Made by a program: the position numbers and the translations under genes. From Actinomycetes bacterium (lineage in GTDB: Bacteria; Actinomycetota; Thermoleophilia; BMS3ABIN01), in contig JAJZQT010000010.1 in the NCBI GenBank assembly GCA_021803005.1, positions 1-39,630 on the forward strand: a stretch of DNA of 39,630 nt. The letters are read 5' to 3'. Positions 3,333 to 20,939 of this stretch are shown piece by piece. Position 1 is the stretch's first letter. Each line of letters starts with the position of its first letter. The notes under the pieces are model-generated. The model worked only from the letters and a program-made list of their open reading frames with translations. It ran no database searches and was not told the DNA's origin.

Positions 3333-3364
3333 CCTGTTAGAACCTCCGTAATTTGCGTATAAAC

Positions 3365-3393
3365 ATCTTATCTGACCGCCCGGGGGCTTACAA
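3365..3393 (-). promoter_or_regulatory. Candidate sigma-70-type promoter for pdxS (TTGTAA-17 nt-TAAGAT on minus strand)
   Basis: Hexamers read by eye, ~32 nt upstream of the pdxS ATG. No experimental support. Confidence 0.3.
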
Positions 3394-3402
3394 ATTCGCG
3401 GG

Positions 3403-3431
3403 TTGAAATGTGCAATTACAAGGTATAGCAT
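3403..3431 (+). promoter_or_regulatory. Candidate sigma-70-type promoter for guaB3-like gene (TTGAAA-17 nt-TAGCAT)
   Basis: Hexamers read by eye. The leader of ~70 nt contains an imperfect hairpin (cctgaagc...gctttcagg). Confidence 0.3.
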
Positions 3432-4827: not shown

Positions 4828-5703
4828 ATGGCGGCGCGCCGGAAAAAACCTGCGACCAATGGCAGTCTGCTGCGCGCGCTTCAGGATGACTTCGAAAACT
4901 TCTCCAAGGCCCGCCAGGCCATTGCCCGCTACCTGATCGACCACCTCGCCGAGGCGCCGGTGCTCACGACGCAGGGCCTCGCCCGCCATACCGGCACAAC
5001 CAGCTCTACCGTCGTCCGCTTTGCCCAGCACCTGGGCTTCACCGGATTCCCCCAGATGATGAATGCCGCCTGGGAGGAAAGCCGCCTGACCGCGGGCGGC
5101 CCCGGAGGCGGCATCGAGGGCCAGCTGGTCTTCCCCGTCGATGATGATTTCTCGGGACGCGCGGTCCGCATCGACGTCAAGATCCTCGAGGAGACCATGA
5201 AGCGGAACCGCGCCAATGAGTTCCTGGAGACCGTGGAGCTGCTGGAGTCGGCGGAGACGATCTTCGTGGCCGGCTTGTTCGAGGCGGCCATGGTCGCCAC
5301 CTATCTCAGTTACTACTTCACGATCATGGGGCTGCCGGTGGTGACGGTGACGGGCAATTCCGAGGAGCAGGTCGCCAGGCTGGCGGGGCTGGGGGAAAAA
5401 TCGGTGCTGATCGCCATCGGCTTCAAGACGGCGCACCAGTTTCTGCTGCGGTTGATAAAGACGGCGAAGGAACGCGGCGCCTTATCGGTGGGCATCAGCG
5501 AGAACACGGTCTCGGAGGTCTCGAAGCTGGCCGAACGGAACCTCTACTGCTACCTCGATTCATCCTCGTTCGCGCCGTCACTGGTGGGCGCATTCGGCAT
5601 CGCCGACGCCCTGGTCTCGGCGCTGTACGTCCGCGAGAAGCGGACCTACGATGCCCACATTTCCCGCCTCCACAGCCTGCCGCTCAGCTCGGACTGGCTC
5701 TAG
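4828..5703 (+). CDS. MurR/RpiR-family transcriptional regulator (HTH_6 + SIS domain)
   Basis: 'FSKARQAIARYLIDHLAEAPVLTTQGLARHTGTTSSTVVRFAQHLGFTGFPQM' is the RpiR HTH. The C-terminal half has SIS-like 'IFVAGLFEAAMVA...VLIAIGF'. Confidence 0.85.
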   Translation: MAARRKKPATNGSLLRALQDDFENFSKARQAIARYLIDHLAEAPVLTTQGLARHTGTTSSTVVRFAQHLGFTGFPQMMNAAWEESRLTAGGPGGGIEGQLVFPVDDDFSGRAVRIDVKILEETMKRNRANEFLETVELLESAETIFVAGLFEAAMVATYLSYYFTIMGLPVVTVTGNSEEQVARLAGLGEKSVLIAIGFKTAHQFLLRLIKTAKERGALSVGISENTVSEVSKLAERNLYCYLDSSSFAPSLVGAFGIADALVSALYVREKRTYDAHISRLHSLPLSSDWL

Positions 5704-7662: not shown

Positions 7663-8883
7663 CTAGATGGCCATCAGGCGGATGAACTCGTCCTGGAATT
7701 TTTTATTCAGCGGCAGGGCGACATGGCGGATGCGACCGCGAATCTCCTCCAGCGCGCCCCTGCCATCGCCGCCCAGCATCAGCACGGCTCCCTGGCAGGC
7801 GGCGTCGGCGACCACCTCGATGCGGTCGTTGGGAAGATCGGGGAACATCTTCAGCAGGCGGGCGTTGTCGAGGTTGATATAACTCCCGAAGGTGCCGGTG
7901 ATCAACATGCGGCCCAGATCTTCGCTGCCGAGCTTCATCCTCAGCACCGATATGGCCGCATGCACCGAAGCCTTGACCAGCTGGAAGGAACGTATGTCAT
8001 GCTGGCTGACGGTGATCGCCTCTTCGCCCCCGGCGACGACCACGGGGCCCTCACGCAGCAGCCGGCCGCTTTCGTCCACCCAGCCGTTCCTCCTCATCCC
8101 GGCGATGATGTCAATAAGGCCCGAGCCGCAGATGCCGCGGGGCTCTCCGTCTCCGACCACTGAGTATTCAAAGCCGCCGTGCCGAAGCTCGGCCTTGTAG
8201 ATGGCGCCTTCTGTCGCCGAAAGGCCGAAGGACATATGCGTGTCCTCATAGGCCGGACCGGCGGGGCTCGATGCCACCAGGATCTTCTCACGGTTGCCGA
8301 GCGCCATCTCGCAATTGGTGCCGACGTCGACGATGAGCTCGGTCTCGCCGCTCTCGGTCATGCCCACCAGCACGATGTCGGCCAGGGCGTCCGCGCCAAC
8401 GAAACCAAAGATCGGACGGGGAATAAACAGGTTGGCCGCGGGCAGGTTGAGGCCGAGCGAGGCGGCCGGCCCCTGGAAGTCTGCCGCGCCCTTGAGATTG
8501 TAGGGGGTGCCGCAAAGCGGACCCGGATCGGCATCGAGCATGAAGGCATACATGGCGGAGTTGCCGACGGCCGCCACCTCGCTGATCTCTCCCGGGCCGA
8601 TGCCGGCATTGGCGCACAGGCGCGAGATCGAGTCATCGATTGCGCCTATCACCTCGGCATGCAGCTCCGCCCGGGCGGAGGAGTCCCCGTCGGCCAGGCC
8701 CAGGCGGCTGGCGATATCGGCGCCGTGGCGCTGCTGGGGGTTGGGGATCACCAGCGTATCGAGCACGCCAGCGCCGCCCAGGTCCACCAGCCGGGACCAG
8801 ATGCTCGAGGTGCCAACGTCGATGGCGACGCCGTATCCCTTTTTTGAGGCATCGCCCTGATCGATCTCTGAGGTATTCATCAA
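7663..8883 (-). CDS. RACo/DUF4445-like ASKHA ATPase (corrinoid reductive-activase C-terminal domain only)
   Basis: 406 aa. 'YGVAIDVGTSSI', 'LIVDVGTNCEMALG', 'SSPAGPAYE', 'GICGSGLIDIIAGM', 'ITVSQHDIRSFQLVKASVHA', 'ITGTFGSYINLDNA' resemble the ASKHA domain of corrinoid activation proteins. No ferredoxin-type Cys cluster is visible. Confidence 0.65.
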   Translation of the reverse strand: MMNTSEIDQGDASKKGYGVAIDVGTSSIWSRLVDLGGAGVLDTLVIPNPQQRHGADIASRLGLADGDSSARAELHAEVIGAIDDSISRLCANAGIGPGEISEVAAVGNSAMYAFMLDADPGPLCGTPYNLKGAADFQGPAASLGLNLPAANLFIPRPIFGFVGADALADIVLVGMTESGETELIVDVGTNCEMALGNREKILVASSPAGPAYEDTHMSFGLSATEGAIYKAELRHGGFEYSVVGDGEPRGICGSGLIDIIAGMRRNGWVDESGRLLREGPVVVAGGEEAITVSQHDIRSFQLVKASVHAAISVLRMKLGSEDLGRMLITGTFGSYINLDNARLLKMFPDLPNDRIEVVADAACQGAVLMLGGDGRGALEEIRGRIRHVALPLNKKFQDEFIRLMAI

Positions 8884-9052
8884 AGTGATAGCGTGTCCAG
8901 GGTATTCAAAGTAACTTGGAATGTGGCGCCTCCCGGGCGGAAACTTCCCGCAACGGCAGGCAAAAACAAAAATCAGCGTAGCAGAAAAGGCGGGGGCTCA
9001 CAAACGCGCCGCGCCGCCGTCTCCCGGCCGGCAATCTCGCTTGCGACCCGCT

Positions 9053-9068
9053 CTTTATCACGATAAAG
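9053..9068. promoter_or_regulatory. 16-bp palindrome CTTTATC-AC-GATAAAG in the divergent control region
   Basis: A perfect 7+7 inverted repeat in the 370-bp AT-richer spacer between the RACo-like gene and the plus-strand radical SAM operon. Operator function is inferred. Confidence 0.35.
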
Positions 9069-9253
9069 CTCGTGGTAATAGGCGTATTTGTCTGATAAAC
9101 TTATTGCAGGTAAAGGGTGAGGGAAAGCTCGGGGTTAAGCTTCGTTAGACCATGTCTTCAAAGGTTTTTTCGCTCTTCTCTCAAAGTCTCGTTCAAGTAT
9201 TATTGTTGCAGGACGTGCACATCGCTGCGCCGATTCGACCGGGGAGCGGTTAA

Positions 9254-10705
9254 TTGAAGTCAATGGTCATACTGCCATCCTGGAAGCCGGATGACATCTA
9301 TCCGTCCAAGCTGGCAAAGTCCGCTATCAGCTACCAGCACCCGCTGGGGCTACTTTATATAGCCACCTGCATCCAGGAGGCCGGCCACGAAGTTCAACTC
9401 GTCGACGGCGCTTTCTGGACTCACAGCGAGGTCATCGACAAGGTCCGTGATTTTCAGCCCGGCTTTGTCGGCATCTCGGCCAATGCTTCCCTGTGGACCA
9501 AGGCGATGAAGACGGCGGCCGGCATCAAGGCCCTCGATCCCTCCATCCACGTGACCGTGGCCGGGCCCTATCCCTCGGCGGTGGAAGAAAAGTGCCTGGA
9601 GCAGTGCGGCGACCTGGATTCCATCGTCGTCGGCGAAGGCGAGGAGACCGTCCCCGAACTGATCGCCCGGCTGGAACAGGGCGAGAGCCTGGCCGGCGTC
9701 GCCGGCGTGGCCTTCCGCGCCGATGACGGCGCCATCGTCAAGAACGAGCCGCGGCCGCTCATCGAGGACCTCGACAGCATCCCCATCCCCCGGCGCGAGC
9801 TTCTGGGAGACTTTAACAAGTATGAGTCGCCGCCCGGCAGCTACAAGGAAAAGCCCATCGCCATCGTCATGAGCTCGCGCGGCTGCAAAGCGCACTGCAT
9901 CTACTGTTTCCAGATGAAGGGCGAGCGGCGCATCCGTTTCCGCAGCGTCGGGAACGTGGTCAGGGAGATTGAGGAGCTGGTGAACCGGTACGGCTTCCGC
10001 GAGATCCGCTTCCTGGACGAGACCTTCACCGCCGACCGCGACCGCGCCTTCGAGATCCTCCGCCGGCTCAAGTCAAAGCGGCTCAACTTCAGCTTCTATG
10101 TCTCCTCACGGGTCAACACCGTGGATTACGAGCTGCTCCGCGAGATGAAGAAGACCGGCTGCTGGGCCATCCTCTTCGGCGCCGAGAGCGGGGTGCAGAA
10201 GAACCTCAACACCATGAAGAAGGGCATCAACCTCGACCAGACCCGCGCCGCGGTGAAGGCGGCCAAGAAGGCCGGGCTCAAGGTGTACACGCCTTTCATC
10301 ATCGGCATCCCCGGCGAGACCTACGAAGAGGCGCTTGAGACCATCGATTTCGCCATCGAGCTCGACCCCCATTACGCCAACTTTCACTCGATGACCCCTT
10401 TCCCCGGGACCGAGCTTTATGAAAATATAGAGAATTACGGCACCATGTCCGCCGACACCGACGACTACACTTTCGAGGGAGGGGCTTTCGTGCCCTATAC
10501 GATGACCCGGGAGCAGATCGACGAGCTGCGCACGCTGGCTTTCCGGAAGTTTTACTCCAGGCCCAAATTCATCGCCCGGCGGCTGCTGGAGGTCCGCAGC
10601 TGGTACGATTTCCGCACGGTGATGAAGGGCGCTTCCAGCTTCTTCTGGCTGTGGGCAAAACGCGATTCGCTCGTGGTCAGGAAGGAAAGGGCGGCAGCCA
10701 AATGA
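9254..10705 (+). CDS. B12-binding-domain radical SAM protein (class B / COG1032-type)
   Basis: The N-terminal Rossmann-like segment 'LGLLYIATCIQEAGHEVQLVDG...VVGEGEETVPEL' is B12-binding-domain-like. 'SSRGCKAHCIYC' is a CxxxCxxC motif. TTG start with GGGGAG 7 nt upstream. Confidence 0.85.
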   Translation: MKSMVILPSWKPDDIYPSKLAKSAISYQHPLGLLYIATCIQEAGHEVQLVDGAFWTHSEVIDKVRDFQPGFVGISANASLWTKAMKTAAGIKALDPSIHVTVAGPYPSAVEEKCLEQCGDLDSIVVGEGEETVPELIARLEQGESLAGVAGVAFRADDGAIVKNEPRPLIEDLDSIPIPRRELLGDFNKYESPPGSYKEKPIAIVMSSRGCKAHCIYCFQMKGERRIRFRSVGNVVREIEELVNRYGFREIRFLDETFTADRDRAFEILRRLKSKRLNFSFYVSSRVNTVDYELLREMKKTGCWAILFGAESGVQKNLNTMKKGINLDQTRAAVKAAKKAGLKVYTPFIIGIPGETYEEALETIDFAIELDPHYANFHSMTPFPGTELYENIENYGTMSADTDDYTFEGGAFVPYTMTREQIDELRTLAFRKFYSRPKFIARRLLEVRSWYDFRTVMKGASSFFWLWAKRDSLVVRKERAAAK

Positions 10706-11802
10706 GCCGTCCCGTCAGCGAGATCCCGCCGGAAGCGCGCCCCGTGTCTGCGGCGAAGGTAAAGCCGCTGAGCGCTACCGCGCAGCCCAAGGTCTCGGTC
10801 GTCATCCCCATCTACAACGGCGCCGGCTCGATCACGCCGGTCATGGAGGCGCTCTTCAAGTCGACCTACGGGAATTTCGAGGCGGTCGTCATCCACGACT
10901 GCTCCACGGACAACAGCGGCGAGGTGCTGGACCGGCTGGCCGGGCAATACGATTTCCGCCTTTTCGAGTTCCCGGAAAACCGCGGCGTCTCCAAGGCGCG
11001 CAACGAGGGCGCCCGGCGGGCCAAGGGCGAGGTCATCCTCTTCATCGACGCCGACTGCATCATCAGGTCCGATACGATCGAGCGTTGCGTCAGGGCGCTG
11101 CAGAAGGGGGAAAGCATCTGCGTCGGCGGCGCCTACACCTGCGATGCCTGGGACCAGGATTTCTTCAGCAACTTCCAGTCGCTCTACATCCATCATGTCG
11201 AGACCAAGGTGGAGCATCCGGACTACATCGCCACCCACTGCATGGCTATCTGGAAGAAGGCTTACGACGAGTTCGGCGGCTTCAAGGAAGACTATTTCAT
11301 CGGCCACGCCGCCAGCGTCGAGGACGTCGAGCTCTCACACCGGCTGATCAGGGCCGGGCATCAGCTGTCGCGGCCGGCGGACATCCAGGTGCAGCACATT
11401 TTCGGCTTCAGCTTCAGCAAGTCGATCCGCAACGCCGTCAAGAAGAGCAAGTACTGGACCATGTATTCACTTCACAGGCGCGACGTCATGAAGGATTCCG
11501 GCGCCGCCTCCCACGAGCTCAAGGTCAACGTGGGCACGCAGACGATCAACGTCTGCCTGGTGGCGGCCGCGGCGGTAACGCGCAGCTGGTGGCCGCTGAT
11601 GGGAGTCATGTTCCTCTACGGCGTCAACACCGCCGTCAGCTACAACCTGCTGCGGCTGATAAAGCAGGAAAGAGACTGGTGGTTCCTGATCCGGGCCATG
11701 GGTTACTACCAGTTCGTCTATCCCTTCGCCGTCGCCTACGGCGCCTTCATGGGAATCCTCAAATATATCTGGGAAGTGAAGCTTACCCGGCGCTACTCCT
11801 AG
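10702..11802 (+). CDS. Family 2 glycosyltransferase with C-terminal transmembrane helices
   Basis: 'VSVVIPIYNGAGS', 'DCSTDNSGEVL', 'NRGVSKARNEG', DXD-like 'FIDADC', and C-terminal hydrophobic helices. ATG 10702 overlaps the upstream TGA (ATGA). Confidence 0.85.
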   Translation: MSRPVSEIPPEARPVSAAKVKPLSATAQPKVSVVIPIYNGAGSITPVMEALFKSTYGNFEAVVIHDCSTDNSGEVLDRLAGQYDFRLFEFPENRGVSKARNEGARRAKGEVILFIDADCIIRSDTIERCVRALQKGESICVGGAYTCDAWDQDFFSNFQSLYIHHVETKVEHPDYIATHCMAIWKKAYDEFGGFKEDYFIGHAASVEDVELSHRLIRAGHQLSRPADIQVQHIFGFSFSKSIRNAVKKSKYWTMYSLHRRDVMKDSGAASHELKVNVGTQTINVCLVAAAAVTRSWWPLMGVMFLYGVNTAVSYNLLRLIKQERDWWFLIRAMGYYQFVYPFAVAYGAFMGILKYIWEVKLTRRYS

Positions 11803-11821
11803 ATGTTAGGCTATAGTAAGG

Positions 11822-11845
11822 CCCGGCGGCGTTCGCCGGCTTTTT
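11822..11845 (+). terminator. Weak intra-operon terminator/attenuator-like hairpin (6-bp GC stem ccggcg/cgccgg, 5-nt loop, TTTTT)
   Basis: Read directly. The T-tract ends 4 nt before the ATG of the next gene (11850). Confidence 0.35.
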
Positions 11846-11849
11846 CCCG

Positions 11850-12938
11850 ATGCCCATGAACTCGTCGCTCAAGTACATCCCTTCGATCTTCTACAAGCGC
11901 CAGCCGCTGCAGTTCACCTTTTTCGTGACCTCGCGCTGCAACGCCCGCTGCCCCTTCTGCTTCTACTGGCAGGACCGGCACGCCGGGCAGGACGAACTGA
12001 CGGTGGACGAGGTCGAGAAGGTCGCCTCTTCCATGGGAAACCTGCTGTGGCTGCTTTTTTCCGGCGGCGAGATCTTCCTGCGCAAGGATCTTCCCGACCT
12101 GGTGGACGCTTTCTACCGCCACAACCATCCCGTGATCATAACCCTGCCGACCAACGGCCTGGCGCCGGACCTGATCCTGCCGCGGACCGAGGAGATCCTC
12201 TCGCGCAGCCCGGAGAGCGCGGTTGTCTGCAAGATTTCCCTCGACGGCGTCGGCGAGGACCACGACCGCATCCGCAATACCCCGGGCAGCTTCGACAAGG
12301 CCATGGAGACCTACGAGGGGCTGCGGCGGCTGGGAGAGCGCCACAAGAACCTGCAACTGGGCATAAACACGGTTTTTTGCCGTGAGAACCAGGACGACAT
12401 GGACCGTATCATCGATTACGTCAACGGCATCCAGGGATGCGAGACCCACACCATTTCCATGATCCGCGGCAATCCGGCGGACGGTTCCTTTAAGGAAATC
12501 GACCTGGAGAAATACCGCCGGGCCGTGGAGCGCCTCGAAGACGACTTGAAAGGCGGCAACGCAAAGATGTACCATTTTACCCTGGCCCGGTTAAAGACGG
12601 CCCAGGACCTGGTGCAGCGGCGCCTGATCTACGAGACCATACGGCAGGGAAGGCGGCTGCTGCCCTGTTATGCCGGCCGCATCGGGGCCGTCATGAGCGA
12701 AACGGGGGACATCTTCCCTTGCGAGATCCTTGACGACAGGATGGGCAACGTCAGGGAGTCGGGCTATGACTTTCCCAAGGTTTTTTTCTCGGAACAGGCT
12801 GATGCTGTCCGGGCCAAGATCAACAGTACCCGATGCTACTGTTCACACGAGTGTTATTTCGTCACAAACATTTTATTCAATCCGCTAAAGTACGGACGGG
12901 TGCTCGGTCAGTACCTGGCCTTGACGGGGAAGAGCTAA
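11850..12938 (+). CDS. Radical SAM protein with C-terminal SPASM/twitch-like Cys cluster
   Basis: 'FFVTSRCNARCPFCFY' (CxxxCxxC), 'FSGGEIFL', and C-terminal 'LPCYAG...IFPCEIL...TRCYCSHECYF'. Confidence 0.85.
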   Translation: MPMNSSLKYIPSIFYKRQPLQFTFFVTSRCNARCPFCFYWQDRHAGQDELTVDEVEKVASSMGNLLWLLFSGGEIFLRKDLPDLVDAFYRHNHPVIITLPTNGLAPDLILPRTEEILSRSPESAVVCKISLDGVGEDHDRIRNTPGSFDKAMETYEGLRRLGERHKNLQLGINTVFCRENQDDMDRIIDYVNGIQGCETHTISMIRGNPADGSFKEIDLEKYRRAVERLEDDLKGGNAKMYHFTLARLKTAQDLVQRRLIYETIRQGRRLLPCYAGRIGAVMSETGDIFPCEILDDRMGNVRESGYDFPKVFFSEQADAVRAKINSTRCYCSHECYFVTNILFNPLKYGRVLGQYLALTGKS

Positions 12939-12994
12939 CCATCAAGCGCTGCGCCGCGTACGAATCGGCTGCCACCATCGAGCCGGCCGCGCCG

Positions 12995-14662
12995 TTGCCG
13001 CTCGCGGAGCGCGTCCGCGAGAGGGCGCCGCGGCTGGCGCTGGTCCTGAGCCTCGGCGCCATCCTGCTGTTCGTGCTGCTTATCACCCTTCCATTTATCA
13101 ATCAGCCGTTCCACATGGATGACGGCACCTTCCTTGATTTCGCCAAGGTCAACCTGGTCCATCCTTTCCAGCAGCACATCCCCGACTATCATCTCATGGG
13201 GGTTGACATAACTGCTTTCCGTGATACCCATCCGGCGCTGGACTGGCTCTATATCACGGCCCTGATGAAGCTGACCGGCAGTGATTCCGAGCGGGTGCTG
13301 CACCTGGGCTACATTATCTTCCCGCTGACGGCCGCGGTCTCCATGTTCTTCCTCTCGCGGCGGTTTATCAGCAACGCCCTGCTGGCGACGCTGCTGCTCC
13401 TGGCGACGCCGGCGCTGATGACAGCCTCGCACACGCTGATGGGAGACATGCCGCTGCTGGCGCTCTGGCTGGCGGCCACCGCCATCTACATCTACGGGGT
13501 CGACCGGGACGACATGCGGCTGCTGCCGCTAGCGGGCGTGGCCACGACCCTCGCCATCTTTGCCGGATACCAGGGCCTGGCGCTGCTGGCGCTGCTGCCG
13601 GCGTATGCCTGGCTCAACCACAGGCTATCCTGGAGGACGGCGCTGCCGCTGCTGCTGCCGGCTGCCACTTTCAGCCTCTACACCATCTACAACTACATCG
13701 ATTACGGCGGGCCCCCGCGCTTCACCCACGCCGGGGGGCTCAGCCTGCAGGAAGGAGACCTGTTCGGCAGGTTCCAGGGCGCGCTGCTGCAGGTGGGCGG
13801 CGCTTCGGTCTTCCCGCTGGCGCTGGCGGGCATTTTCTGTCTGCGCCGCCGGCGTTATTTCCTGCTCGTGGCGGTGGGGGCTACCGTGTCGGCCTGGGGA
13901 GCCTACCATTACCGCTATGACGCCTACACCGCGGCGGCGGCGGTGCTGTTTGTGATATTCATGACCGCGGTTGTGATGGCGCTGCTGTCGATCGCAACCG
14001 ATGGCATCGGGCAGCTGCGCCGTATCGTCAAGCGGCTCGATTTCGACGCCGACTTTGTCTTCCTGGCGCTGTGGCTGATATCGATGCTGGCGGCCGTGAT
14101 CGTGCTGCTGCCGCACTCCACCGCCAAGTACAGCCTTCCCTTCCTGGCGCCGCTGATTCTGCTGATCTTCCGCGAGGCGGAGGCAAGGATCGCGTCGCGG
14201 ACCCCGCTGATGCTGATCATGTCCCTGGCCGTACTCTTCACCCTGGCCTCCGGGGTGGTTGTTTCCGCGGCCGATTACCAGCTGGCTGAGACCTACAGGG
14301 ATTACGCCCTGAGCTTCAACCGCAGCTATCAGACCGGGGGCACCGTCTGGTTCGTGGGGGAATGGGGATTCCGCCATTACATGGAATCCCAGGGATACCG
14401 GTACCTGACAACCGACAGCACGGCGCCGTCTCCCGGAGACCTGATCGTCAAACCGAGGCTGAGCGAATGGCCGCTGGCCGGCCAGGTTACCAGCCGCATG
14501 AAATTGATCGGCACTACCGCCGTGGAGGGAACGCTGCCGGTGAGGGTGATGAGCTTCGAGGCTGGAGCCGGCCTCTACGGAAACTTCTGGGGGCCCCTGC
14601 CCTATTCGATCTTGGACGCGCCGATCGAACGGTTCGACGTCTACCAGGTATCTGATTCCTAG
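12995..14662 (+). CDS. Polytopic membrane protein, candidate GT-C-fold (ArnT/PMT-like) glycosyltransferase
   Basis: About 12 hydrophobic helices, an acidic first-loop motif 'FHMDDGTFLDF' after TM1, and a ~130-aa soluble C-terminal domain. The start is uncertain: TTG 12995 chosen; ATG 12833 would overlap the upstream gene by 106 nt. Confidence 0.6.
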   Translation: MPLAERVRERAPRLALVLSLGAILLFVLLITLPFINQPFHMDDGTFLDFAKVNLVHPFQQHIPDYHLMGVDITAFRDTHPALDWLYITALMKLTGSDSERVLHLGYIIFPLTAAVSMFFLSRRFISNALLATLLLLATPALMTASHTLMGDMPLLALWLAATAIYIYGVDRDDMRLLPLAGVATTLAIFAGYQGLALLALLPAYAWLNHRLSWRTALPLLLPAATFSLYTIYNYIDYGGPPRFTHAGGLSLQEGDLFGRFQGALLQVGGASVFPLALAGIFCLRRRRYFLLVAVGATVSAWGAYHYRYDAYTAAAAVLFVIFMTAVVMALLSIATDGIGQLRRIVKRLDFDADFVFLALWLISMLAAVIVLLPHSTAKYSLPFLAPLILLIFREAEARIASRTPLMLIMSLAVLFTLASGVVVSAADYQLAETYRDYALSFNRSYQTGGTVWFVGEWGFRHYMESQGYRYLTTDSTAPSPGDLIVKPRLSEWPLAGQVTSRMKLIGTTAVEGTLPVRVMSFEAGAGLYGNFWGPLPYSILDAPIERFDVYQVSDS

Positions 14663-16095
14663 TCAAACATCAAGCGTATGCTTTTCAGGTAATTCCTCAT
14701 CACGCGGACGGATGTCATTTTCCGCAGGTGCCTGAGCATGATGTTTGGCCGCAGGTAAAATCGGCGGTAGGCCCGCCTGGGAGCGTTGGCAAGCTGCTCC
14801 CGCGTCACGTGTTTGTGGCGATAGACCGGCTTGCCCATCACGTCGTAATCGTACCAATTTTCAGTGAGCAGCAAGCCTTCTGCCCGGTATCTCTCAAATT
14901 CCTGCGTGCCCGGGAACGGCACCATGACGCCAAACCCGGCGCTGTCGAGTCCGATCTCGCGGGAAAAATCAATCGTCTCCTGCATCGTTTCGGGAGTCTC
15001 GTCAACGAACCCAAAAAGGAAGTACCCATGTGCGGAAATGCCGGCCTGCCGGGTGGCCTGCACGGCCGTAGCCACCTTTTCCCTGGTGATGTTCTTGATC
15101 TCCTCGAGCATGGCGGCATTGCCCACCTCGATGCCATACTGAATGAGCCGGCAACCGGCCTTTTTCATCGCTGACAGCATTTCTGCATCGACCTCGTTGG
15201 CACGGGCGCTGCAGGTCCAGGCGATATCAAGGTTGCGCTCGTTTATCAGGCGGCAAATCTCCAGCAGGCGCTTTCGATTGCAGATCATCGACGGATCGCG
15301 GAAGGAAAATGTGGTCACGGCGTAATCTCGGTACAGCCAGGTCATCTCATCGACGATATTCCCGGCGCCGCGAAGCCGGTACCTCTTTCCCTGTTGAGCG
15401 GTTACGTCACAAAAACAGCAATTATAAGGGCAGCCGCGGCCGCTGATGATACAGGAGAAATTCCCACTTTTGCCCCACGCGGGAAACGGGTTGTAAAATG
15501 CCGGCTCGGGCAGCAGGTCGTGCGCGGGAAAGGGCAGCCCGTCGAGATCCATGTTTCTGTTCCTGGTTGCGGTCGTAACCGTCCCGGACTCGCCGGGAAT
15601 TACCAGCCCGGGCACCGTTTCCAGGTCAACGCCGGCGGCGACAGCATTGCAGATGTCGCGCATGGTCTCCTCGCCCTCACCAATTACCGCGACATCGACG
15701 TCAGGTCCGCTCACGGCGTCCGCGGGCAGGGCGGTCACGTGCGGCCCTCCCACCACGGTCAGGACTTTCGAAGCTCCTTGCTTGACGATTCCGGCCAGCT
15801 TCCGGGCGTCGGGCCATTGGGGCGTCAGGGACGAGATACCGACCACATGCGGCTGAAAAGATTTGATCGTGTTGCGGATATCACTTGTGGTGGTTCCCAT
15901 CGAGTAGGCATCGATGATGCGGACCTCGTGGCCTGCCTGGCGGGCCGTCGCAGCCACATAAGCCAGACCCAGGGGCTGCGTTGAGATCCAGGGACGCTCG
16001 ATCTCGTCCTTCCAGAGGCCGCGAGGAGGCGTCATCAGAAGAACCCTGCATCCCGAATTTGTTTCCTTCATCCTGTTCCCGTCATCTGCCCGCAC
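14659..16095 (-). CDS. B12-binding-domain radical SAM protein (tandem paralog 2)
   Basis: 'LGLAYVAATARQAGHEVRIIDA', 'VIGEGEETMRDI', 'SGRGCPYNCCFCDV'. Collinear with the 16414-17838 product. Start is GTG 16095 or ATG 16071. Confidence 0.85.
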   Translation of the reverse strand: MRADDGNRMKETNSGCRVLLMTPPRGLWKDEIERPWISTQPLGLAYVAATARQAGHEVRIIDAYSMGTTTSDIRNTIKSFQPHVVGISSLTPQWPDARKLAGIVKQGASKVLTVVGGPHVTALPADAVSGPDVDVAVIGEGEETMRDICNAVAAGVDLETVPGLVIPGESGTVTTATRNRNMDLDGLPFPAHDLLPEPAFYNPFPAWGKSGNFSCIISGRGCPYNCCFCDVTAQQGKRYRLRGAGNIVDEMTWLYRDYAVTTFSFRDPSMICNRKRLLEICRLINERNLDIAWTCSARANEVDAEMLSAMKKAGCRLIQYGIEVGNAAMLEEIKNITREKVATAVQATRQAGISAHGYFLFGFVDETPETMQETIDFSREIGLDSAGFGVMVPFPGTQEFERYRAEGLLLTENWYDYDVMGKPVYRHKHVTREQLANAPRRAYRRFYLRPNIMLRHLRKMTSVRVMRNYLKSIRLMFD

Positions 16096-16326
16096 CGTCC
16101 GGCTGCGGGTGAATTACCGTTTTCCCCACGTATCCTGCTGCCGCGGAACAACTACATGTTCCGTGTCTCTCGAAAGGAAGATTGCTCGAACCCGCAGAGC
16201 TCTAGAAAGTCCAGAAAACCGTTGACTTAAAGAGGAAATCCTACCCACCCAAGCGCCCGAACTTAATAATCTGCACGCAAGGCCGCCGTTTCACTAGTGG
16301 CGTCTGCCCCATTATTCAATGTTACA

Positions 16327-16335
16327 ATTATAACA
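16327..16335 (-). promoter_or_regulatory. Extended -10 promoter candidate (TGTTATAAT on minus strand) for the downstream radical SAM paralog
   Basis: A perfect TGnTATAAT element. It lies after a GC hairpin (agccgg...ccggct, about 16352-16378) that could terminate the upstream gene. It would give a ~230-nt leader. Confidence 0.4.
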
Positions 16336-16413
16336 ATAACCGCGTCAAATGAGCCGGGAACCCGCTGGCGGCCGGCTTGCTCTTGATATAAATGTCCGTC
16401 TTGATCGGGCAAC

Positions 16414-17838
16414 TCATCTGAACACCTGCCTCGCCGCTTGCAGGTAATTGAAGAAAATTTGCGGCGAAGCCATTTTCCTCAGATGCAGGGCCAGAATCCT
16501 CGGCCTCAGGTAAAATCGGCGGTAGGCGCGGCGATGCGCTCTCATGATCTGGTCACTGGTGACGTTCGCGTTCCGGTAAACCGGCTTGTTCATGTAGTCA
16601 TATTCGCGCCACTCTTTCGTCAGCAACCGGCCTTCAGACTGGTAGCGCTCGAACTCGCGAGTGCCCGGGAAGGGAACCAGGATCATGAAGCCGGCGCTGT
16701 CGAGGTCCAGTTTTCTGGCGAAGACCGCTGTTTCTTCCATGGTCGCCTCGGTCTCGTCGGAAAAGCCGAACATGAAGTAACCGTGGGGAGAGATGCCCGC
16801 CCGGCGCGTGTCGCTGACCGCCTGCTCCACCTGTGTTTTTTCCATGCGTTTGATTGATTTGATCATTTCGGCATTGCCGACCTCGATGCCATACTTGATC
16901 AGATAGCAACCAGCCTGCTTCATGGCGACGAGCATCTCCAGGTCAACTTCATCGGCGCGGCTGTTGCAGTTCCAGACGATATCCAGCCCCCGCTCCCGGA
17001 TCAACCGGCAGATCTCCAAGAGCCGCTTGCGGTGGCAAACCACAGAGGGGTCCCGGAACGAAAACATGGAAATGCCATAATCCTTGTTGAGCCACTCCAT
17101 TTCGTCGACTATGTTTCCCGCGCTCCGCAGCCTGTACTGCTTGCCCTGCTGGGCGGTGACGTCACAGAAACTGCAGTAATAGGGGCATCCTCTGCCGCTG
17201 AGGATGCTGGAGAAGTGGCCCCGTCTGCCCCAGGTGGGCAGGGGATTGTAGGTGGCCGGATCCGGCAGCAGGTCGTGGGCAGGGAAGGAAAGGCTGTCCA
17301 GATCGGTGATTTTCGGCCGGGGGCCGGTTCGGACCACATTGCCGCCGATCTCCAGGGCTATGCCTTTGACTGAACTCAGATCGCCTCCGGCCGCCACGGT
17401 GTTGCAGATGTCCTGGATCGTTTCCTCACCCTCTCCGATCACAGCGATGTCGACACTCGGATCGGCGGCCGTTTCTTCCGGCAATGCGGTGACATGCGGC
17501 CCACCCACCACGGTGACAATTTTCTCATCCACGGTCTTGGCGATGCGGGCTGCGGCCTGTACATCGGACCACTGCGGGGTCAGACAGGAAATACCCACCA
17601 CTTTTGGACGCATCGATTCGATCTTCTCGCGGATGGACTCACCGGAGAGTCCCAAAGCGTGAGCTTCAAGGATCTCGGCGGGATGGCCGCCCTGGCGAAC
17701 CGCAGCCGCAATATAGGCGATTCCGAGAGGTTGTGTCGATTCACGCGGTTTCTCGACCGCGTCTTTCCAGAGACCCTTTGGCGGGGTCACGAGCAGCAGG
17801 CCGTTGCCGGATTTATCGCTCATGGTTAAAGCAGTCAC
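16414..17838 (-). CDS. B12-binding-domain radical SAM protein (tandem paralog 1)
   Basis: 'LGIAYIAAAVRQGGH', 'VIGEGEETIQDI', 'SGRGCPYYCSFCDV'. GTG 17838 overlaps the upstream TGA (GTGA); the alternative start is ATG 17823. Confidence 0.85.
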   Translation of the reverse strand: MTALTMSDKSGNGLLLVTPPKGLWKDAVEKPRESTQPLGIAYIAAAVRQGGHPAEILEAHALGLSGESIREKIESMRPKVVGISCLTPQWSDVQAAARIAKTVDEKIVTVVGGPHVTALPEETAADPSVDIAVIGEGEETIQDICNTVAAGGDLSSVKGIALEIGGNVVRTGPRPKITDLDSLSFPAHDLLPDPATYNPLPTWGRRGHFSSILSGRGCPYYCSFCDVTAQQGKQYRLRSAGNIVDEMEWLNKDYGISMFSFRDPSVVCHRKRLLEICRLIRERGLDIVWNCNSRADEVDLEMLVAMKQAGCYLIKYGIEVGNAEMIKSIKRMEKTQVEQAVSDTRRAGISPHGYFMFGFSDETEATMEETAVFARKLDLDSAGFMILVPFPGTREFERYQSEGRLLTKEWREYDYMNKPVYRNANVTSDQIMRAHRRAYRRFYLRPRILALHLRKMASPQIFFNYLQAARQVFR

Positions 17839-19247
17839 GCCTTGGCGCGGACGACTTTGAAGAAACTCCTGACCAGCCGGTAATACCTTCTGATATCCTC
17901 CGGCCCCCTGATTGCCGACGCCAGCCGCATAAACTGCCGCGGCCTCACGAAAAAGTCGACGATGGCCTTGCGGTGCATCTCCTGGATATACTCCGCGGTC
18001 AACCCCCTGGGCACGAAACCCAGATTGCCCCGCTGGTAACTGGAGCCGATGTCGAGACTCATGTTGGTGGAGCCGTATTCGTGGGCGATCTCGCGCGCCT
18101 TCGAGCCGGGAGCCAGGTACATGACACTGATGTTCATGGAATAAAGCGGCAGCGACCTGGCGAAATCGATGGTCTCCTGGATGGTCTCCCTGGTCTCGAT
18201 CAGGTGCCCGATCATGAAGTAACCGCGGATCCTGATGCCCTCGTCGCTAAGCCAGCCGAGCACCCGCCGCACCGTCTCCTTGTCAACCGGCTTGTGGATG
18301 AATCTCAGCACTTCATCGCTGCCGCTCTCGATGCCGCACGACACCAGCCAGCAGCCGGCGTCCTTCATCGCCTTGATGACTTCACGGTCGAGAGTTGTCA
18401 GATTGACCGTCGCCGTCCAGGGAATCCTGATGCCGCGCTCCTTCATCAGGCGGCAGATCTCCAGCACCCGGCGCCTGTTGAGGGCGAAAGTGTCTTCATG
18501 GAAGCTGACCTCGCGGGCGCCGAACTCTTCAATGACGTGCTCGACCAGGCCCACGACGTACGCGGCCGAGTTTCCCCGCCAGCGATGGGTCCAGACGGAG
18601 TTGCAGAAGATACACTGGAAGGGACAGCCGCGGCTGGTGATGAGCGTGACGACAGGCTTGCGCCGGTAGACCATCTGATGGGGGGCATAGGTCTCGATGC
18701 CCTTGATCAGGTGGAAAGCCGGATATGGCAGATCGTCCAGATTGTCAAGGAGCGGGCGCGGCTCGTTCTTTACGACTTCGCCGTCCCGGTGGAAATAGAT
18801 TCCCTGCACCCGCTCCAGGTCGCCGCCGGATTCGATGGTTTCCACCAGCTCCAGCAGCGAATACTCACCCTCGCCGGTCACCAGGTAGTCGAAAGCGTCG
18901 CACTGGGCCAGGTCCTCGGGGAACACCATCACGTGAGGACCGCCGGCGACGATGGGGATGCCGAACTCGCTCTTGATCGCCGTGGCGGTCTCGATCGCCT
19001 GGTTGGCGCCGATCGAGTAAACCGAGAGGCCGATGAGTTCCGGCTGGAACTGCTTCACTTTTTCGGCGAGGGCCAGCAGGCTGAGCGGATGCCTCACCGA
19101 ATCGATGATCATCACTTCATGCCCGGCCTTCTCCAGGACCGCGCCGAGGCAGCAGAGGCCGTAAGGAGGAAGATAGGAACCGATATCTTCCAGGTTGCCG
19201 TAACGTTTTACGCCGCTGACCGCGCCGCTTATCAGCAGTAACTTCAT
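17835..19247 (-). CDS. B12-binding-domain radical SAM protein
   Basis: 'YGLCCLGAVLEKAGHEVMIID', 'VTGEGEYSLLEL', 'TSRGCPFQCIFCNS'. ATG 19247 overlaps the stop of the corrinoid-protein gene (ATGA). Confidence 0.85.
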   Translation of the reverse strand: MKLLLISGAVSGVKRYGNLEDIGSYLPPYGLCCLGAVLEKAGHEVMIIDSVRHPLSLLALAEKVKQFQPELIGLSVYSIGANQAIETATAIKSEFGIPIVAGGPHVMVFPEDLAQCDAFDYLVTGEGEYSLLELVETIESGGDLERVQGIYFHRDGEVVKNEPRPLLDNLDDLPYPAFHLIKGIETYAPHQMVYRRKPVVTLITSRGCPFQCIFCNSVWTHRWRGNSAAYVVGLVEHVIEEFGAREVSFHEDTFALNRRRVLEICRLMKERGIRIPWTATVNLTTLDREVIKAMKDAGCWLVSCGIESGSDEVLRFIHKPVDKETVRRVLGWLSDEGIRIRGYFMIGHLIETRETIQETIDFARSLPLYSMNISVMYLAPGSKAREIAHEYGSTNMSLDIGSSYQRGNLGFVPRGLTAEYIQEMHRKAIVDFFVRPRQFMRLASAIRGPEDIRRYYRLVRSFFKVVRAKA

Positions 19248-19897
19248 CGCCTGTCGCCATCGCGGCCGGTAAGCCTGCGGCAGACCGCCAGCGTGCTCTT
19301 GACGTCGGTGGCAAAACCGTCGACGCCGACCTCGCGCGCGAATTTCTCGGAGTGTGAAGCCCCTCCGGAGACGACCTTGACGCTGCCGCGCAGCCCTTCG
19401 GCTTCCAGCGCCGCCATGACGTCGAGCAGGGCCGGCTTGGTCGAGGTGGTAAAGGCCGACAGCAGCAGCAGGCCGGCCCCGGTTTCCCTGACCTTGTTTA
19501 CAAATTTTTCCGTCGAGACGTTCACGCCCAGATCGTGGACCTCGTATCCGGCCGCCCTCAGGGCCGAGACGATGATGTTCTTGCCGATGTTGTGGATGTC
19601 TCCCCTGACCGTGCCCATGACCACCACGCCCGCCTGCTCGTGGCGGCTCTCGAAAAGATAGGGCTCGAGCACGGCCATGGCCTTCTCCACCGCTTCGGCC
19701 GAGCGCAGCATCTCGGGGATGAAATACTCGCCGGTCTGATAACGGCTGCCAACTTCCTCCATGGCATTGGAGAGGTGGGCGAAGATCTCGTCGGCGGTTG
19801 CCTGTCCCGCCGCCACAATGGCGTCGGCCAGGTCGGCGCTGGCGTCGGCGTTACCGGCGATGAGAGCCGTCTCGAATTTTTCCAGGATCTCTTCCAT
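19244..19897 (-). CDS. Corrinoid (cobalamin)-binding protein, MtaC/MtbC/MetH-cap type
   Basis: 217 aa. N-terminal helical cap 'YQTGEYFIPEMLRSAEAV', then 'GTVRGDIHNIGKNIV' (DxHxxG), 'LLLLSAF' and 'VVSGGA' of the B12-binding Rossmann domain. Confidence 0.85.
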   Translation of the reverse strand: MEEILEKFETALIAGNADASADLADAIVAAGQATADEIFAHLSNAMEEVGSRYQTGEYFIPEMLRSAEAVEKAMAVLEPYLFESRHEQAGVVVMGTVRGDIHNIGKNIIVSALRAAGYEVHDLGVNVSTEKFVNKVRETGAGLLLLSAFTTSTKPALLDVMAALEAEGLRGSVKVVSGGASHSEKFAREVGVDGFATDVKSTLAVCRRLTGRDGDRR

Positions 19898-19928
19898 GTA
19901 TTGCCGGGGTTCCTCCCGATGCGTTCTC

Positions 19929-20939
19929 TTAGTAGCTGCCGTACTTCCGGCCGTACTCCACCAGCGCGGCGATATTTTCCTCCGGGGCTGAAAGCGGGAT
20001 CGAGTCGCCGCTGCTCAGGATGAAGCCGCCGCCCTTGCCGGCAGCCCCGATGGCCGCCTTCACGGCCGCCTCGACAGCGGCGATGCCGCCTTTCTCGATT
20101 ACCGAGACGGCGTCGATGTTGCCCTTGAGGGCCACCTTGCCGCCGACCGCGGACTTGGCCGCCGCCAGGTCGACGGGCGAGTCGATCTCGAGCGCCGCGG
20201 CGCCGGTTCTGGCCATGTCTTTCAGGATCGGCATGCTGTTTCGGCAGATGTGCAGGATAACTGGAATCTCCTCCGCCAGCTCCGCGATGGCCTCGCGCCC
20301 GGATGGAAAAGCGAATTCACGGTAATGCTCGGGGGAGATCATGCTCGAGGAGGCAAAGGAATCCTTGACCACCAGCGCGTCGACTCCCGCCTTGATAAAT
20401 GCCCTGCCGACCGCCATGGTCGCCGGCCTGACCGCCTCGATCAGGTCGCGCACCAGCCCGGGGTCACGATAGAAATCGGTCATAAATTCGATCAGCCCCC
20501 GGACGGTGGCCGCGTATTCGAATGGCGAGCGGACGCTGCCGAGGACGGCATAGCCGCCCGCGGCGGCCTCTACCAGCCGCTGGACCGGCTCCATCTTGCC
20601 GCCGGCCCAGGGATCGGGCATGGCCAGTTTCTCGAGGTCCTCGCGCCCGCCGACGATCGTCTCAACCACCAGCGGCACGTCGTTGCCCTCGATCTCGACC
20701 GGGCAGCCCAGCACGTTGGGGTCCGGACCCAGCCCCATCTCGGCCACGGCGCCGTCGTAGGCGAACTTCAGCTGAGCCGCCGTCAGGGCCTCGGCCAGGC
20801 AGGCGCCGTCCGCGAAACAATCATCGTTGGCGCGCCCGATGACCTTGGGCGCAAAGAAGCCGTCCACAACCGGCACAATCGGGACCCGGTCCGGCATCTC
20901 GCCGGCCAGGACCGCCAGGAACCTCTCACGGGAATTCAC
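19929..20939 (-). CDS. URO-D-family protein, MtaA/CmuA-like (MT2-type methylcobamide methyltransferase-like)
   Basis: 336 aa. 'MNSRERFLAVLAGEMPDRVPIVP', 'ILHICRNS' (HxC), 'GFILSSGDSIP'. GTG start with a GGGGTGGG SD. Confidence 0.7.
   Translation of the reverse strand: MNSRERFLAVLAGEMPDRVPIVPVVDGFFAPKVIGRANDDCFADGACLAEALTAAQLKFAYDGAVAEMGLGPDPNVLGCPVEIEGNDVPLVVETIVGGREDLEKLAMPDPWAGGKMEPVQRLVEAAAGGYAVLGSVRSPFEYAATVRGLIEFMTDFYRDPGLVRDLIEAVRPATMAVGRAFIKAGVDALVVKDSFASSSMISPEHYREFAFPSGREAIAELAEEIPVILHICRNSMPILKDMARTGAAALEIDSPVDLAAAKSAVGGKVALKGNIDAVSVIEKGGIAAVEAAVKAAIGAAGKGGGFILSSGDSIPLSAPEENIAALVEYGRKYGSY

Follow-up and report, generated by a model that had tools for sequence, protein, structure and literature searches.

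A conserved cluster of radical SAM, glycosyltransferase and corrinoid methyl-transfer genes in the uncultured Thermoleophilia lineage BMS3ABIN01

Gene content and conservation of the cluster

The contig JAJZQT010000010.1 (assembly GCA_021803005.1) of an Actinomycetes bacterium belongs to BMS3ABIN01, an uncultured Thermoleophilia order that lives in anoxic subsurface habitats and is a predicted sulfate reducer (PMC13503563). Positions 7,663 to 20,939 of this DNA, the full 39,630 nucleotides of which are called the window here, carry ten genes encoding radical S-adenosylmethionine (SAM) enzymes, two membrane glycosyltransferases and three corrinoid-related proteins. This cluster is a composite of a widespread module, formed by a family 2 glycosyltransferase (GT2), radical SAM enzymes and a GT-C glycosyltransferase, and a lineage-specific corrinoid add-on, and the fusion of both is a specific and recurrent variant. 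The closest proteins are encoded in Thermoleophilia, Gaiellales and Actinobacteria metagenome-assembled genomes (MAGs) and in 'bacterium BMS3Abin01'.

On the forward strand, the cluster encodes a B12-domain radical SAM enzyme (rSAM_A; 9254-10705, 483 amino acids; Pfam B12-binding, 4.7e-21, and Radical_SAM, 2.1e-27), the GT2 (10702-11802, 366 amino acids; Glycos_transf_2, 7.4e-31), a SPASM/twitch-type radical SAM enzyme (rSAM_S; 11850-12938, 362 amino acids; only Radical_SAM, 7.2e-16) and a GT-C glycosyltransferase of the GT39/PMT_2 type (GT39; 12995-14662, 555 amino acids; PMT_2, 3e-08). On the reverse strand, it encodes a truncated RACo-type ASKHA ATPase (RACo; 7663-8883, 406 amino acids; Raco_middle, 8.6e-34, and RACo_C_ter, 1.4e-56), the accessory B12-domain radical SAM enzyme rSAM_B (14659-16095, 478 amino acids), its paralogue rSAM_C (16414-17838, 474 amino acids) and a third type of accessory enzyme, rSAM_D (17835-19247, 470 amino acids), all three with the Pfam domains B12-binding and Radical_SAM. 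These are followed by a corrinoid protein (CoP; 19244-19897, 217 amino acids), composed of a B12-binding_2 cap and a Rossmann B12-binding domain, and by an MtaA-like URO-D-fold methyltransferase (UROD; 19929-20939, 336 amino acids; URO-D, 3.4e-56). The coordinates and domains listed in an earlier note on this DNA were all recovered by the open reading frame (ORF) listing and by Pfam. The note had counted eleven genes, whereas ten are present, and the two larger gaps (8884-9253 and 16096-16413) contain no conserved ORF. The flanking genes are, as described before, nfo and lepB at one end and rsfS at the other, with lytR and nadD following beyond rsfS. The reported start/stop overlaps are likewise seen on the sequence, i.e., ATGA between rSAM_A and GT2 (10702-10705), ATGA between CoP and rSAM_D (19244-19247), where the rSAM_D start overlaps the CoP stop codon, and GTGA between rSAM_D and rSAM_C (17835-17838). 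Moreover, GT39 and rSAM_B converge and their stop codons overlap at 14659-14662, and in a related locus (L001) the rSAM_B start abuts the CoP stop.

One genome per GTDB species was scanned with the UROD alignment as query, which resulted in 22 loci from about 21 species-level MAGs, and the gene order of the lineage loci was mapped by tblastn. Within the lineage the block is conserved as a unit, as had been proposed: in every sufficiently long locus except L016 it is found at the same site and in the same order, UROD-CoP-[accessory radical SAM gene]-GT39-rSAM_S-GT2-rSAM_A-RACo, always between rsfS and lepB. The genes for RACo, rSAM_A, GT2, rSAM_S, CoP and UROD are invariant across the lineage loci, and for GT39 the only sufficiently long locus with no match is L016. 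The accessory B12-domain radical SAM genes vary. They are absent from L009 and L010, and in L025, whose contig breaks off within GT39, none is seen up to that point; most lineage loci have rSAM_B alone, while rSAM_D is found in L016, L019, L026, L027 and L032, and rSAM_B together with rSAM_D in L022 (rSAM_D orthologues with 66-69% identity). The combination of rSAM_B, rSAM_C and rSAM_D, and hence rSAM_C, occurs only in the window among the loci examined. The gene for rSAM_C and the 318-nucleotide gap before rSAM_B coincide with positions 16001-17000, which have a G+C content of 0.55 compared to about 0.62 and are the window's lowest except for the first kilobase, which would fit a recent duplication or insertion. 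The sequence identities within the lineage are 79-89% for rSAM_A, 68-84% for rSAM_S, 66-85% for CoP and 68-78% for UROD, so that the conservation of these enzymes matches or exceeds that of the flanking lepB (52-77%) and rsfS (62-81%). The least conserved cluster protein is GT39 with 43-57% identity, and the variable accessory radical SAM enzymes together with a fast-evolving GT-C enzyme fit a diversification of surface glycans. Two lineage loci carry an inserted gene for a 625-residue secreted LamG/concanavalin-like protein with C-terminal NE.../...TET motifs resembling glycoside hydrolase clan GH-A (L011 5572-7458, forward strand; L016 13556-15433, forward strand), which occupies the place of GT39 in L016. 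In L036 (10001-12702), the same chromosomal position on the rsfS side holds a frameshifted UROD gene with a Transposase_mut gene behind it, and no other cluster gene lies within 10 kb. The cluster seems to have decayed here, although this contig, with its many frameshifts, may contain errors.

Outside the lineage, the two parts of the cluster separate. A scan of metagenomes with the rSAM_S alignment yielded about 35 loci with rSAM_S orthologues of 43-54% identity on contigs with a G+C content of 0.42-0.71. In nearly all of these distant loci GT2 lies directly upstream of rSAM_S, in about 12 other loci rSAM_A orthologues (51-59%) adjoin the GT2-rSAM_S pair, and the commonest further neighbor is a PMT_2 GT-C gene (9 loci). 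Neither UROD nor CoP nor RACo was found within 10 kb of GT2-rSAM_S in the about 35 metagenomic loci. Both parts together occur only in this actinobacterial lineage and on two archaeal contigs. In the first, the probably archaeal L037, UROD (54%) and CoP (51%) lie next to rSAM_S (53%), GT2 (47%) and rSAM_A (51%), accompanied by a Wzx-type flippase, a polysaccharide deacetylase and a CWB2 protein. In the second, the Woesearchaeota MAG contig L007, a short RACo of 372 amino acids overlaps the start of a B12-domain radical SAM gene by 4 nucleotides, and UROD-CoP, five or six radical SAM genes in all and a PMT_2 protein are encoded within 16 kb. The cluster is composite because GT2-rSAM_S, with or without rSAM_A and the GT-C gene, and UROD-CoP each occur alone elsewhere. 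The idea of one indivisible eleven-gene system is therefore not borne out, and a separable radical SAM/glycosyltransferase core and a corrinoid pair take its place. Gene-neighborhood comparison, which the earlier note had proposed as a check, thus gave a divided answer: the trio of UROD, CoP and RACo is joined to the radical SAM/glycosyltransferase genes throughout the lineage, and UROD-CoP is so in both archaeal contigs, but each part is separate elsewhere. An independent segregation of the two parts, which the note had named as speaking against its reading, is hence seen in part.

This raises the question of whether the trio and the radical SAM/glycosyltransferase genes are unrelated in function and have remained neighbors through frozen synteny in a single lineage. 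That both parts exist apart and that all actinobacterial loci share one chromosomal site, so that their co-occurrence counts as a single evolutionary event, would agree with such a view. However, RACo and UROD-CoP are located at opposite ends of the cluster and thereby bracket the radical SAM/glycosyltransferase genes, CoP overlaps the start codon of the next radical SAM gene, two archaeal contigs combine the parts independently, and no member of the lineage has one part alone except the decayed L036. We consider a merely historical neighborhood quite improbable.

The glycosyltransferases and their SPASM-type radical SAM partner

The earlier note had described a transmembrane-anchored GT2 and a protein with about twelve transmembrane helices and an acidic first loop, and had suggested that both act as a pair on a polyprenyl-phosphate sugar. 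For GT2, membrane helices are present, but the anchor is C-terminal and not N-terminal: an N-terminal GT-A domain is followed by two to three hydrophobic helices at about residues 283-357, as judged by hydropathy. The best sequence matches in the PDB include DPMS (5MLZ, 1.2e-11) and ArnC (3e-05) along with many other GT-A enzymes, and GT2 is below all curated NCBIfam cut-offs of the ArnC, AglJ, GtrB and DPMS type. GT2 is a candidate polyprenyl-phosphate sugar synthase. GT39 has about 11-12 transmembrane helices, the acidic first loop with D42-D43, which is invariant in 27 homologues, and a C-terminal extracytoplasmic β-rich domain. Its AlphaFold2 model (AF2; pLDDT 91) has a GT-C fold and is closest in Foldseek to ArnT (5EZM, 2.9e-06), followed by AglB, AftD, ALG12 and STT3. 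The proposed GT2/GT-C logic agrees with these matches of the GT39 model to ArnT, AglB and AftD and with the C-terminal membrane helices of GT2. To our knowledge, all characterized GT-C enzymes use polyprenyl-phosphate-linked donors, and because GT39 has the GT-C fold, a scheme with a lipid-linked donor is proposed here. Among the distant homologues of GT39, L005 (39% identity) and P0049 (30%) were followed up as further members and discarded, as they lie outside radical SAM clusters; one distant homologue sits with a GT2 and ordinary SAM methyltransferases.

The pairing of a membrane GT2 with an ArnT-like GT-C enzyme is the same as in the three-component glycosylation systems GtrA/GtrB/GtrC, ArnC/ArnE-F/ArnT and Ppm1/Pmt. 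In such systems a membrane synthase makes the polyprenyl-linked donor, which auxiliary enzymes may diversify (Kelly et al., 2024, PMC11127046), as in the system of polyprenyl-phosphoribose synthase, MATE flippase and GT136 with its auxiliary epimerases (PMC11127046). The auxiliary genes of the cluster lie between synthase and transferase, as is also the case for ArnD or for the epimerases of PMC11127046, and relatives of the module are likewise found in loci resembling those for lipopolysaccharide (LPS) and O-antigen. The auxiliary enzymes themselves differ, being radical SAM enzymes instead (one of the SPASM type and one to four with a B12 domain), and no description of radical SAM auxiliaries for lipid-linked sugars was found in the literature searched. 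A dedicated flippase such as GtrA, ArnE/F, a MATE or a Wzx-like protein is encoded neither in the ten genes nor in their immediate flanks, and a Wzx-like gene was seen only in the archaeal relative L037.

The assignment of rSAM_S to the SPASM/twitch type is borne out indirectly. Pfam detects no SPASM domain in the rSAM_S of the window itself, but it does so in 7 of the 10 relatives scanned. Among 38 family members the cysteines C30/C34/C37 and the C-terminal C273/C291/C329/C331 are invariant and C335 is conserved in at least 90%. The AF2 model (pLDDT 93) has its best Foldseek matches in CteB, SkfB, SuiB, BlsE, anSME and DesII, a likeness to SPASM/twitch enzymes in general that includes the sugar-acting BlsE and DesII and the dehydrogenase anSME. 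The family is large, with 1171 clusters at 50% identity (E<=1e-30), and appears uncharacterized.

The most direct clue to the partner of rSAM_S comes from natural fusion proteins of about 620-740 amino acids, most of which are arranged as GT2, two transmembrane helices and rSAM_S, and one of which has the reverse order (representatives P0335, P0356, P0376, P0384, P0386, P0391, P0400, P0410, P0425, P0431 and P0326). Their GT2 part aligns to the GT2 of the window over the full length, transmembrane region included, which indicates that GT2 and rSAM_S are direct partners on the cytoplasmic face of the membrane. Since two transmembrane helices lie between the domains, both face the cytoplasm. A SPASM radical SAM enzyme and a membrane GT2 are also encoded in one cluster in the mycofactocin system (MftC and MftF). 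The GT2 of the window matches MftF over nearly its full length, however with 84.8 bits below the cut-off of 280, MftC is matched with 53.9 bits compared to 265, and MftA, MftB, MftD and MftE are missing from the cluster.

As rSAM_S is structurally closest to the peptide maturases CteB, SkfB and SuiB, and as the models of ApyD and rSAM_ocin weakly match the B12-domain enzymes, the cluster could also be read as one for a peptide made on the ribosome and modified after translation (RiPP), in which SPASM and B12-domain radical SAM enzymes mature a ribosomal peptide prior to glycosylation. However, the alignment to CteB begins only at CteB residue 86, and rSAM_S lacks an N-terminal peptide-recognition domain of the RRE (RiPP recognition element) type. 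Moreover, no conserved small ORF is present in any intergenic gap in more than 20 loci, including the RACo/rSAM_A region and the gaps from CoP to the radical SAM genes, so that the earlier statement that there is no convincing precursor peptide holds. Neither a protease nor an exporter is encoded in the cluster and, in relatives, rSAM_S is fused to a membrane GT2. A RiPP pathway is highly improbable.

The contexts of relatives point to sugars. In L041 an LPS heptosyltransferase fusion is encoded, with a homologous ORF in L044. In L077 (1295-16687) a homologue of rSAM_S with 32% identity overlaps a downstream GT2 and faces a B12-domain radical SAM gene within a nonulosonic-acid/O-antigen-like locus that also encodes a NeuC-NeuB fusion, a DegT aminotransferase, a 4,6-dehydratase, a cytidylyltransferase, a NusG paralogue and an AsnB-like amidotransferase; by its predicted gene content, this locus is a second flavor of the same theme of rSAM_S, GT2 and B12-domain radical SAM enzyme. 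Because the contexts of relatives comprise heptosyltransferases, a Wzx-type flippase, nonulosonic-acid genes and a LamG/glycoside hydrolase-like protein, a sugar target is favored over lipid tails. Of the envelope lipid or glycan that the earlier note had suggested as target, the glycan is hence favored while a chemistry on lipid tails is weakened.

In the latter case, the radical SAM enzymes would modify lipid tails or backbones by methylation, cross-linking or cyclization, comparable to Tes, Grs, Gms, Mss and the hopanoid methylases, and the glycosyltransferases would add a head-group sugar. In favor of this, the host lineage is an anaerobic one of the subsurface, HpnJ, HpnR and the lipid-associated TIGR04072 are found among the weak best matches of the B12-domain enzymes, GDGT-MAS is among the distant matches of rSAM_S, and GT2 weakly matches the ceramide-glucosyltransferase-like Glyco_transf_21. 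However, all these lipid-related model scores are far below the family cut-offs, a gene for lipid synthesis is present neither in the cluster nor in any relative examined, the contexts of relatives are those of glycans, and it is the glycosyltransferase to which the radical enzyme is joined in the GT2-rSAM_S fusions. We regard the modification of lipid tails as improbable.

Genes with a presumed role in sulfur handling, i.e., for secreted rhodanese-domain proteins (three types), a YeeE/Sulf_transp membrane protein and a small DsrE-like protein, repeatedly flank GT2-rSAM_S-GT-C elsewhere (c4: L043, L046, L051, L053 and L071; c9 and c15: L052, L055, L057 and L058; c25: L043 and L053; c8: L041, L043, L044 and L053), and a sulfur-related step or acceptor for this module is possible. 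In two unrelated loci a gene for an FAD (flavin adenine dinucleotide) amine-oxidase-type oxidoreductase lies directly beside rSAM_A orthologues (L053 12585-14060, reverse strand; L072 1-936, forward strand), which might represent an additional tailoring enzyme.

The B12-domain radical SAM enzymes and the corrinoid trio

All four proteins described as B12-domain radical SAM enzymes are such enzymes: PF02310 is found with 68-92 bits (cut-off 32.1) and PF04055 with 62-97 bits in each of them, and an N-terminal B12-binding domain precedes a radical SAM core with the CxxxCxxC motif (C211/C215/C218 in rSAM_A). The paralogues rSAM_B and rSAM_C are 61% identical, while rSAM_A, rSAM_B/rSAM_C and rSAM_D share about 31-33% with each other. 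Of these, rSAM_A is the invariant enzyme of the cluster and is translationally coupled to GT2. They have the same domain layout as class B radical SAM enzymes (TokK, QCMT/MgmA, CysS and TsrM as well as the non-methylating AprD4, HpnJ, BchE and OxsB) and, with about 470-480 amino acids, a size like QCMT, but are at most about 30% identical to any characterized member. Confident orthology to an enzyme of a known pathway, which the earlier note had named as an observation that would speak against its reading, was not found in the NCBIfam comparison: all scores for HpnJ, HpnR, BchE, PhpK, QCMT, BzaD, AprD4, KedN5 and TsrM are well below the cut-offs, the best curated model for rSAM_A being HpnJ with 235 bits compared to a cut-off of 577.6. 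In the PDB, rSAM_A is closest to the non-methylating AprD4 (3.9e-27), followed by the methylase QCMT/MgmA (9CCB, 4e-19), and the B12-radical SAM C-methylase 9CCB is the second-best relative for rSAM_B as well. As this second-best solved relative is a compact methylase, C-methylation is favored and is probably the chemistry of the B12-domain enzymes.

The match to HpnJ recalls the formation of the hopanoid cyclitol ether by HpnI and HpnJ, where a glycosyltransferase is likewise combined with a B12-domain radical SAM enzyme. However, the cluster scores far below these families also for HpnI (21.6 bits compared to 310), and no hpn, shc or other hopanoid gene is present in the window. HpnI/HpnJ and the archaeal calditol synthase presumably share with the cluster the idea that a lipid-bound sugar is remodeled by radical chemistry.

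Class B radical SAM enzymes are regarded as self-contained, as a second SAM molecule remethylates their own cobalamin, and they are notoriously difficult to keep active in vitro. The known members reload cobalamin from SAM without partner proteins, whereas the cluster encodes putative corrinoid partners. The claim that corrinoid proteins, RACo or MtaA have not been described as partners of B12-radical SAM enzymes agrees with the literature searched, in which no paper linking them was found and neither the pairing of corrinoid and B12-domain radical SAM proteins nor the module of GT2, SPASM-type radical SAM enzyme and GT-C is described. A 2026 review of B12-radical SAM enzymes nowhere mentions corrinoid-protein or activase partners (PMC12931638).

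The trio resembles corrinoid methyltransferase systems such as MtaABC with RamA, the bacterial O-demethylases and MtsA/MtsB, with which it shares a free DxHxxG corrinoid protein, a URO-D-fold MtaA-like enzyme with an H-x-C motif and an ASKHA ATPase of the RACo family. As described earlier, CoP is a DxHxxG corrinoid protein: it has the motif GDIHNIG and both its Pfam domains are above the cut-off; it reaches 152 bits with the NCBIfam model pyl_corrinoid (cut-off 215). UROD was likewise correctly described as URO-D/MtaA-like and aligns best to MtaA (4AY7), with 144.5 bits to mtaA_cmuA (TIGR01463; cut-off 235.4). Its residues H230, C232, E251 and D312 are conserved, the H-I-C zinc motif is kept, and D312, which is invariant in 16 homologues, replaces the third zinc-ligand cysteine of MtaA, so that the complete His-x-Cys...Cys ligand set of MtaA/CmuA is not present in UROD. 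For the RACo-like ATPase the assignment stands in part: the ATPase domains are present, but the protein is a truncated form with neither a [2Fe-2S] nor a linker domain. Its alignment to the 631-residue RACo of C. hydrogenoformans (3ZYY) covers residues 197-615 of the latter; it keeps the ASKHA phosphate and adenosine motifs DxGT(S/T), DxGTN and GSG, and scores 203.8 bits with the NCBIfam model AcsV (cut-off 800). The ORF is not extendable, 406 amino acids being the maximum. Short RACo proteins with at least 67% identity are found only in this lineage, and the next matches, with at most 38%, are almost all full-length RACo proteins of 600-650 amino acids. The cluster was confirmed to contain no methyltransferase 1 (MT1), precursor peptide or nucleotide-sugar gene, and a domain of a substrate-specific MT1 (MtaB, MttB, MtvB or OdmB type) is absent from the flanks, too. 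Hence, the trio differs from corrinoid methyltransferase systems by the lack of an MT1, the aspartate as third ligand and the activase devoid of [2Fe-2S] and linker domains. Compared to methylotrophy operons, the corrinoid genes are here embedded in radical SAM/glycosyltransferase operons.

Judged from gene content and homology, the cluster would be a glycosylation system of the three-component type with radical SAM tailoring and with a recruited and remodeled corrinoid methyl-transfer module, all parts of which come from known superfamilies. In the proposed pathway, the membrane GT2 would make a polyprenyl-phosphate sugar at the cytoplasmic face. This sugar would be oxidized or epimerized by rSAM_S, the obligate partner of GT2, and C-methylated by rSAM_A as the most likely reactions, and zero to three accessory B12-domain enzymes (rSAM_B, rSAM_C and rSAM_D) might add species-specific decorations. 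After flipping, the ArnT-like GT-C enzyme would transfer the sugar to an extracytoplasmic acceptor, which might be a glycan, a lipid or a protein. The MtaA-like enzyme, CoP and the truncated RACo would have been recruited to keep the B12-domain enzymes in the methyl-cob(III)alamin state, either with a methyl group taken from a donor other than SAM or through reactivation of cob(II)alamin by ATP-dependent reduction. This service role of the trio is ranked first because the trio is co-operonic with the accessory radical SAM genes and brackets the cluster. We propose this scheme as a whole, i.e., radical tailoring of a polyprenyl-phosphate-linked envelope sugar with the corrinoid trio servicing the B12-domain enzymes, tentatively and with slightly less than even confidence. 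It builds on the observed gene content, operon coupling, conservation, GT2-rSAM_S partnership in fusion proteins, GT-C fold and glycan contexts, while the lipid-linked sugar as substrate, methylation as the reaction and the entire role of the trio are inferred. Its more specific form, that methyl-CoP, loaded by the MtaA-like enzyme from a non-SAM donor and maintained by RACo, is the source of methyl groups or methylcobalamin for the B12-radical SAM methylases, is doubtful.

Several observations weigh against this scheme. None of the ten cluster proteins reaches any curated (equivalog) cut-off in NCBIfam, and every chemistry assigned here is for that reason a guess. The likeness of GT2 to many GT-A enzymes about equals that to DPMS and ArnC, the best PDB match of the B12-domain enzymes, AprD4, is a non-methylating dehydratase, and neither a flippase nor a nucleotide-sugar gene is found within the cluster. 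The RACo protein has no electron-input domain, and we know of no precedent for a methyl transfer between proteins from a corrinoid protein to a B12-radical SAM enzyme. Moreover, about 11 other loci have rSAM_A orthologues but no corrinoid gene within reach of the locus, and UROD-CoP occurs alone with no radical SAM gene nearby in five archaeal loci (L006, L008, L119, L120/L121 and L029). As the halves occur separately, the trio is neither required by rSAM_A nor dedicated to radical SAM enzymes. The closest non-actinobacterial UROD-CoP pairs are archaeal as well, with 47-56% identity. For L120/L121 a link to glycosylation had been considered, as UROD-CoP lies there with a second URO-D protein and an STT3-like GT-C protein; it was rejected, since the second URO-D protein is a true HemE (418 bits), and because HemE adjoins sucD the context is housekeeping. 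More distant UROD homologues with at most 36% identity (L038, L034 and L035) are part of ordinary systems of methyltransferases and corrinoid protein or of unrelated contexts and were rejected as relatives of the cluster.

The isolated UROD-CoP pairs suggest another role, as they can function without adjacent radical SAM enzymes. UROD-CoP, together with RACo, might be a self-sufficient two-component methyltransferase of the same glycosylation pathway that methylates or demethylates a heteroatom (S, O or N) on the pathway sugar or on a small molecule and does not service the cobalamin of the radical SAM enzymes. In MtsA/MtsB a single URO-D-fold enzyme catalyzes both half-reactions. UROD retains E251 and the MtaA-type H-x-C metal motif, elsewhere rSAM_A orthologues do without an adjacent trio, and the sulfur-handling neighbors of GT2-rSAM_S hint at a chemistry that an MtaA-like thiol methylase could complete. 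However, the third zinc ligand of UROD is an aspartate and not a cysteine, an MT1 specific for a methyl donor is lacking, and the coupling of CoP to a B12-domain radical SAM gene, and of RACo to another one in L007, argues for a tie that is tighter than a shared pathway. We regard a self-sufficient methyltransferase as unlikely, though as the main alternative.

If methyl-CoP loaded from a non-SAM donor were indeed the methyl source, this would be a first case of partner proteins dedicated to class B radical SAM enzymes, and the system would serve the formation of C-methylated or alkylated sugars on polyprenyl-phosphate for the cell envelope of anaerobes. The operon offers a testable candidate for a natural methyl-supply or repair system of these enzymes, which is relevant to enzymology, biocatalysis and C-methylation where SAM is costly. 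Furthermore, the large GT2/rSAM_S family points to an oxygen-independent radical tailoring of lipid-linked sugars, by which anaerobic bacteria and archaea may commonly diversify their surface glycans. The association seen in the genomes is solid and will surprise radical SAM specialists; all hosts are uncultured, and the mechanistic link is one of gene context.

Control regions and neighboring genes

The divergent region between RACo and rSAM_A (8884-9253) was analyzed in an alignment of 15 orthologous intergenic regions. It contains a conserved box AGCGTAGCAGAAAAG (8975-8989), a promoter-like element TGGTAA-N17-TAAACT with a conserved spacer (ATATTTnTCTG; 9073-9101), a purine box GGGTGAGGGAAAG (9115-9127) and, within the leader of rSAM_A of about 150 nucleotides, a pyrimidine box CGCTCTTCTCTC (9171-9182). 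Across about 15 orthologous loci the purine box reads GGGGTGAGGGGAA and is located about 15 nucleotides downstream of the promoter-like element. The four boxes between 8975 and 9182 may form an operator or a leader element. A riboswitch or other structured RNA in the rSAM_A leader was considered as well and is unsupported: Rfam gave no family for the whole window at gathering thresholds or for 8700-9400 at E-value thresholds, and RNAalifold on eight orthologous leaders resulted in -4.5 kcal/mol with no covariation and no convincing consensus structure. Promoter-like and terminator-like sites are no more numerous in the region than expected from shuffled sequences. In the 47-nucleotide gap between GT2 and rSAM_S, a GC-rich hairpin on the forward strand is followed by a T-run (11823-11839); it is a possible internal attenuator or partial terminator and would split the plus-strand operon.

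Further genes of the window lie at a distance from the cluster. Two of them, downstream of the ATP-synthase operon, are likewise envelope genes: a Glycos_transf_4 protein, i.e., a polyprenyl-phosphate sugar-1-phosphate transferase of the WecA/MraY type, is encoded at 34606-35676 (reverse strand), and a 782-residue protein with Big_5 and BNR-like repeats at 37241-39589 (reverse strand). The left end of the window encodes PdxS (2442-3431), an IMPDH-family protein (3506-4669) and an RpiR/SIS regulator (4828-5703).

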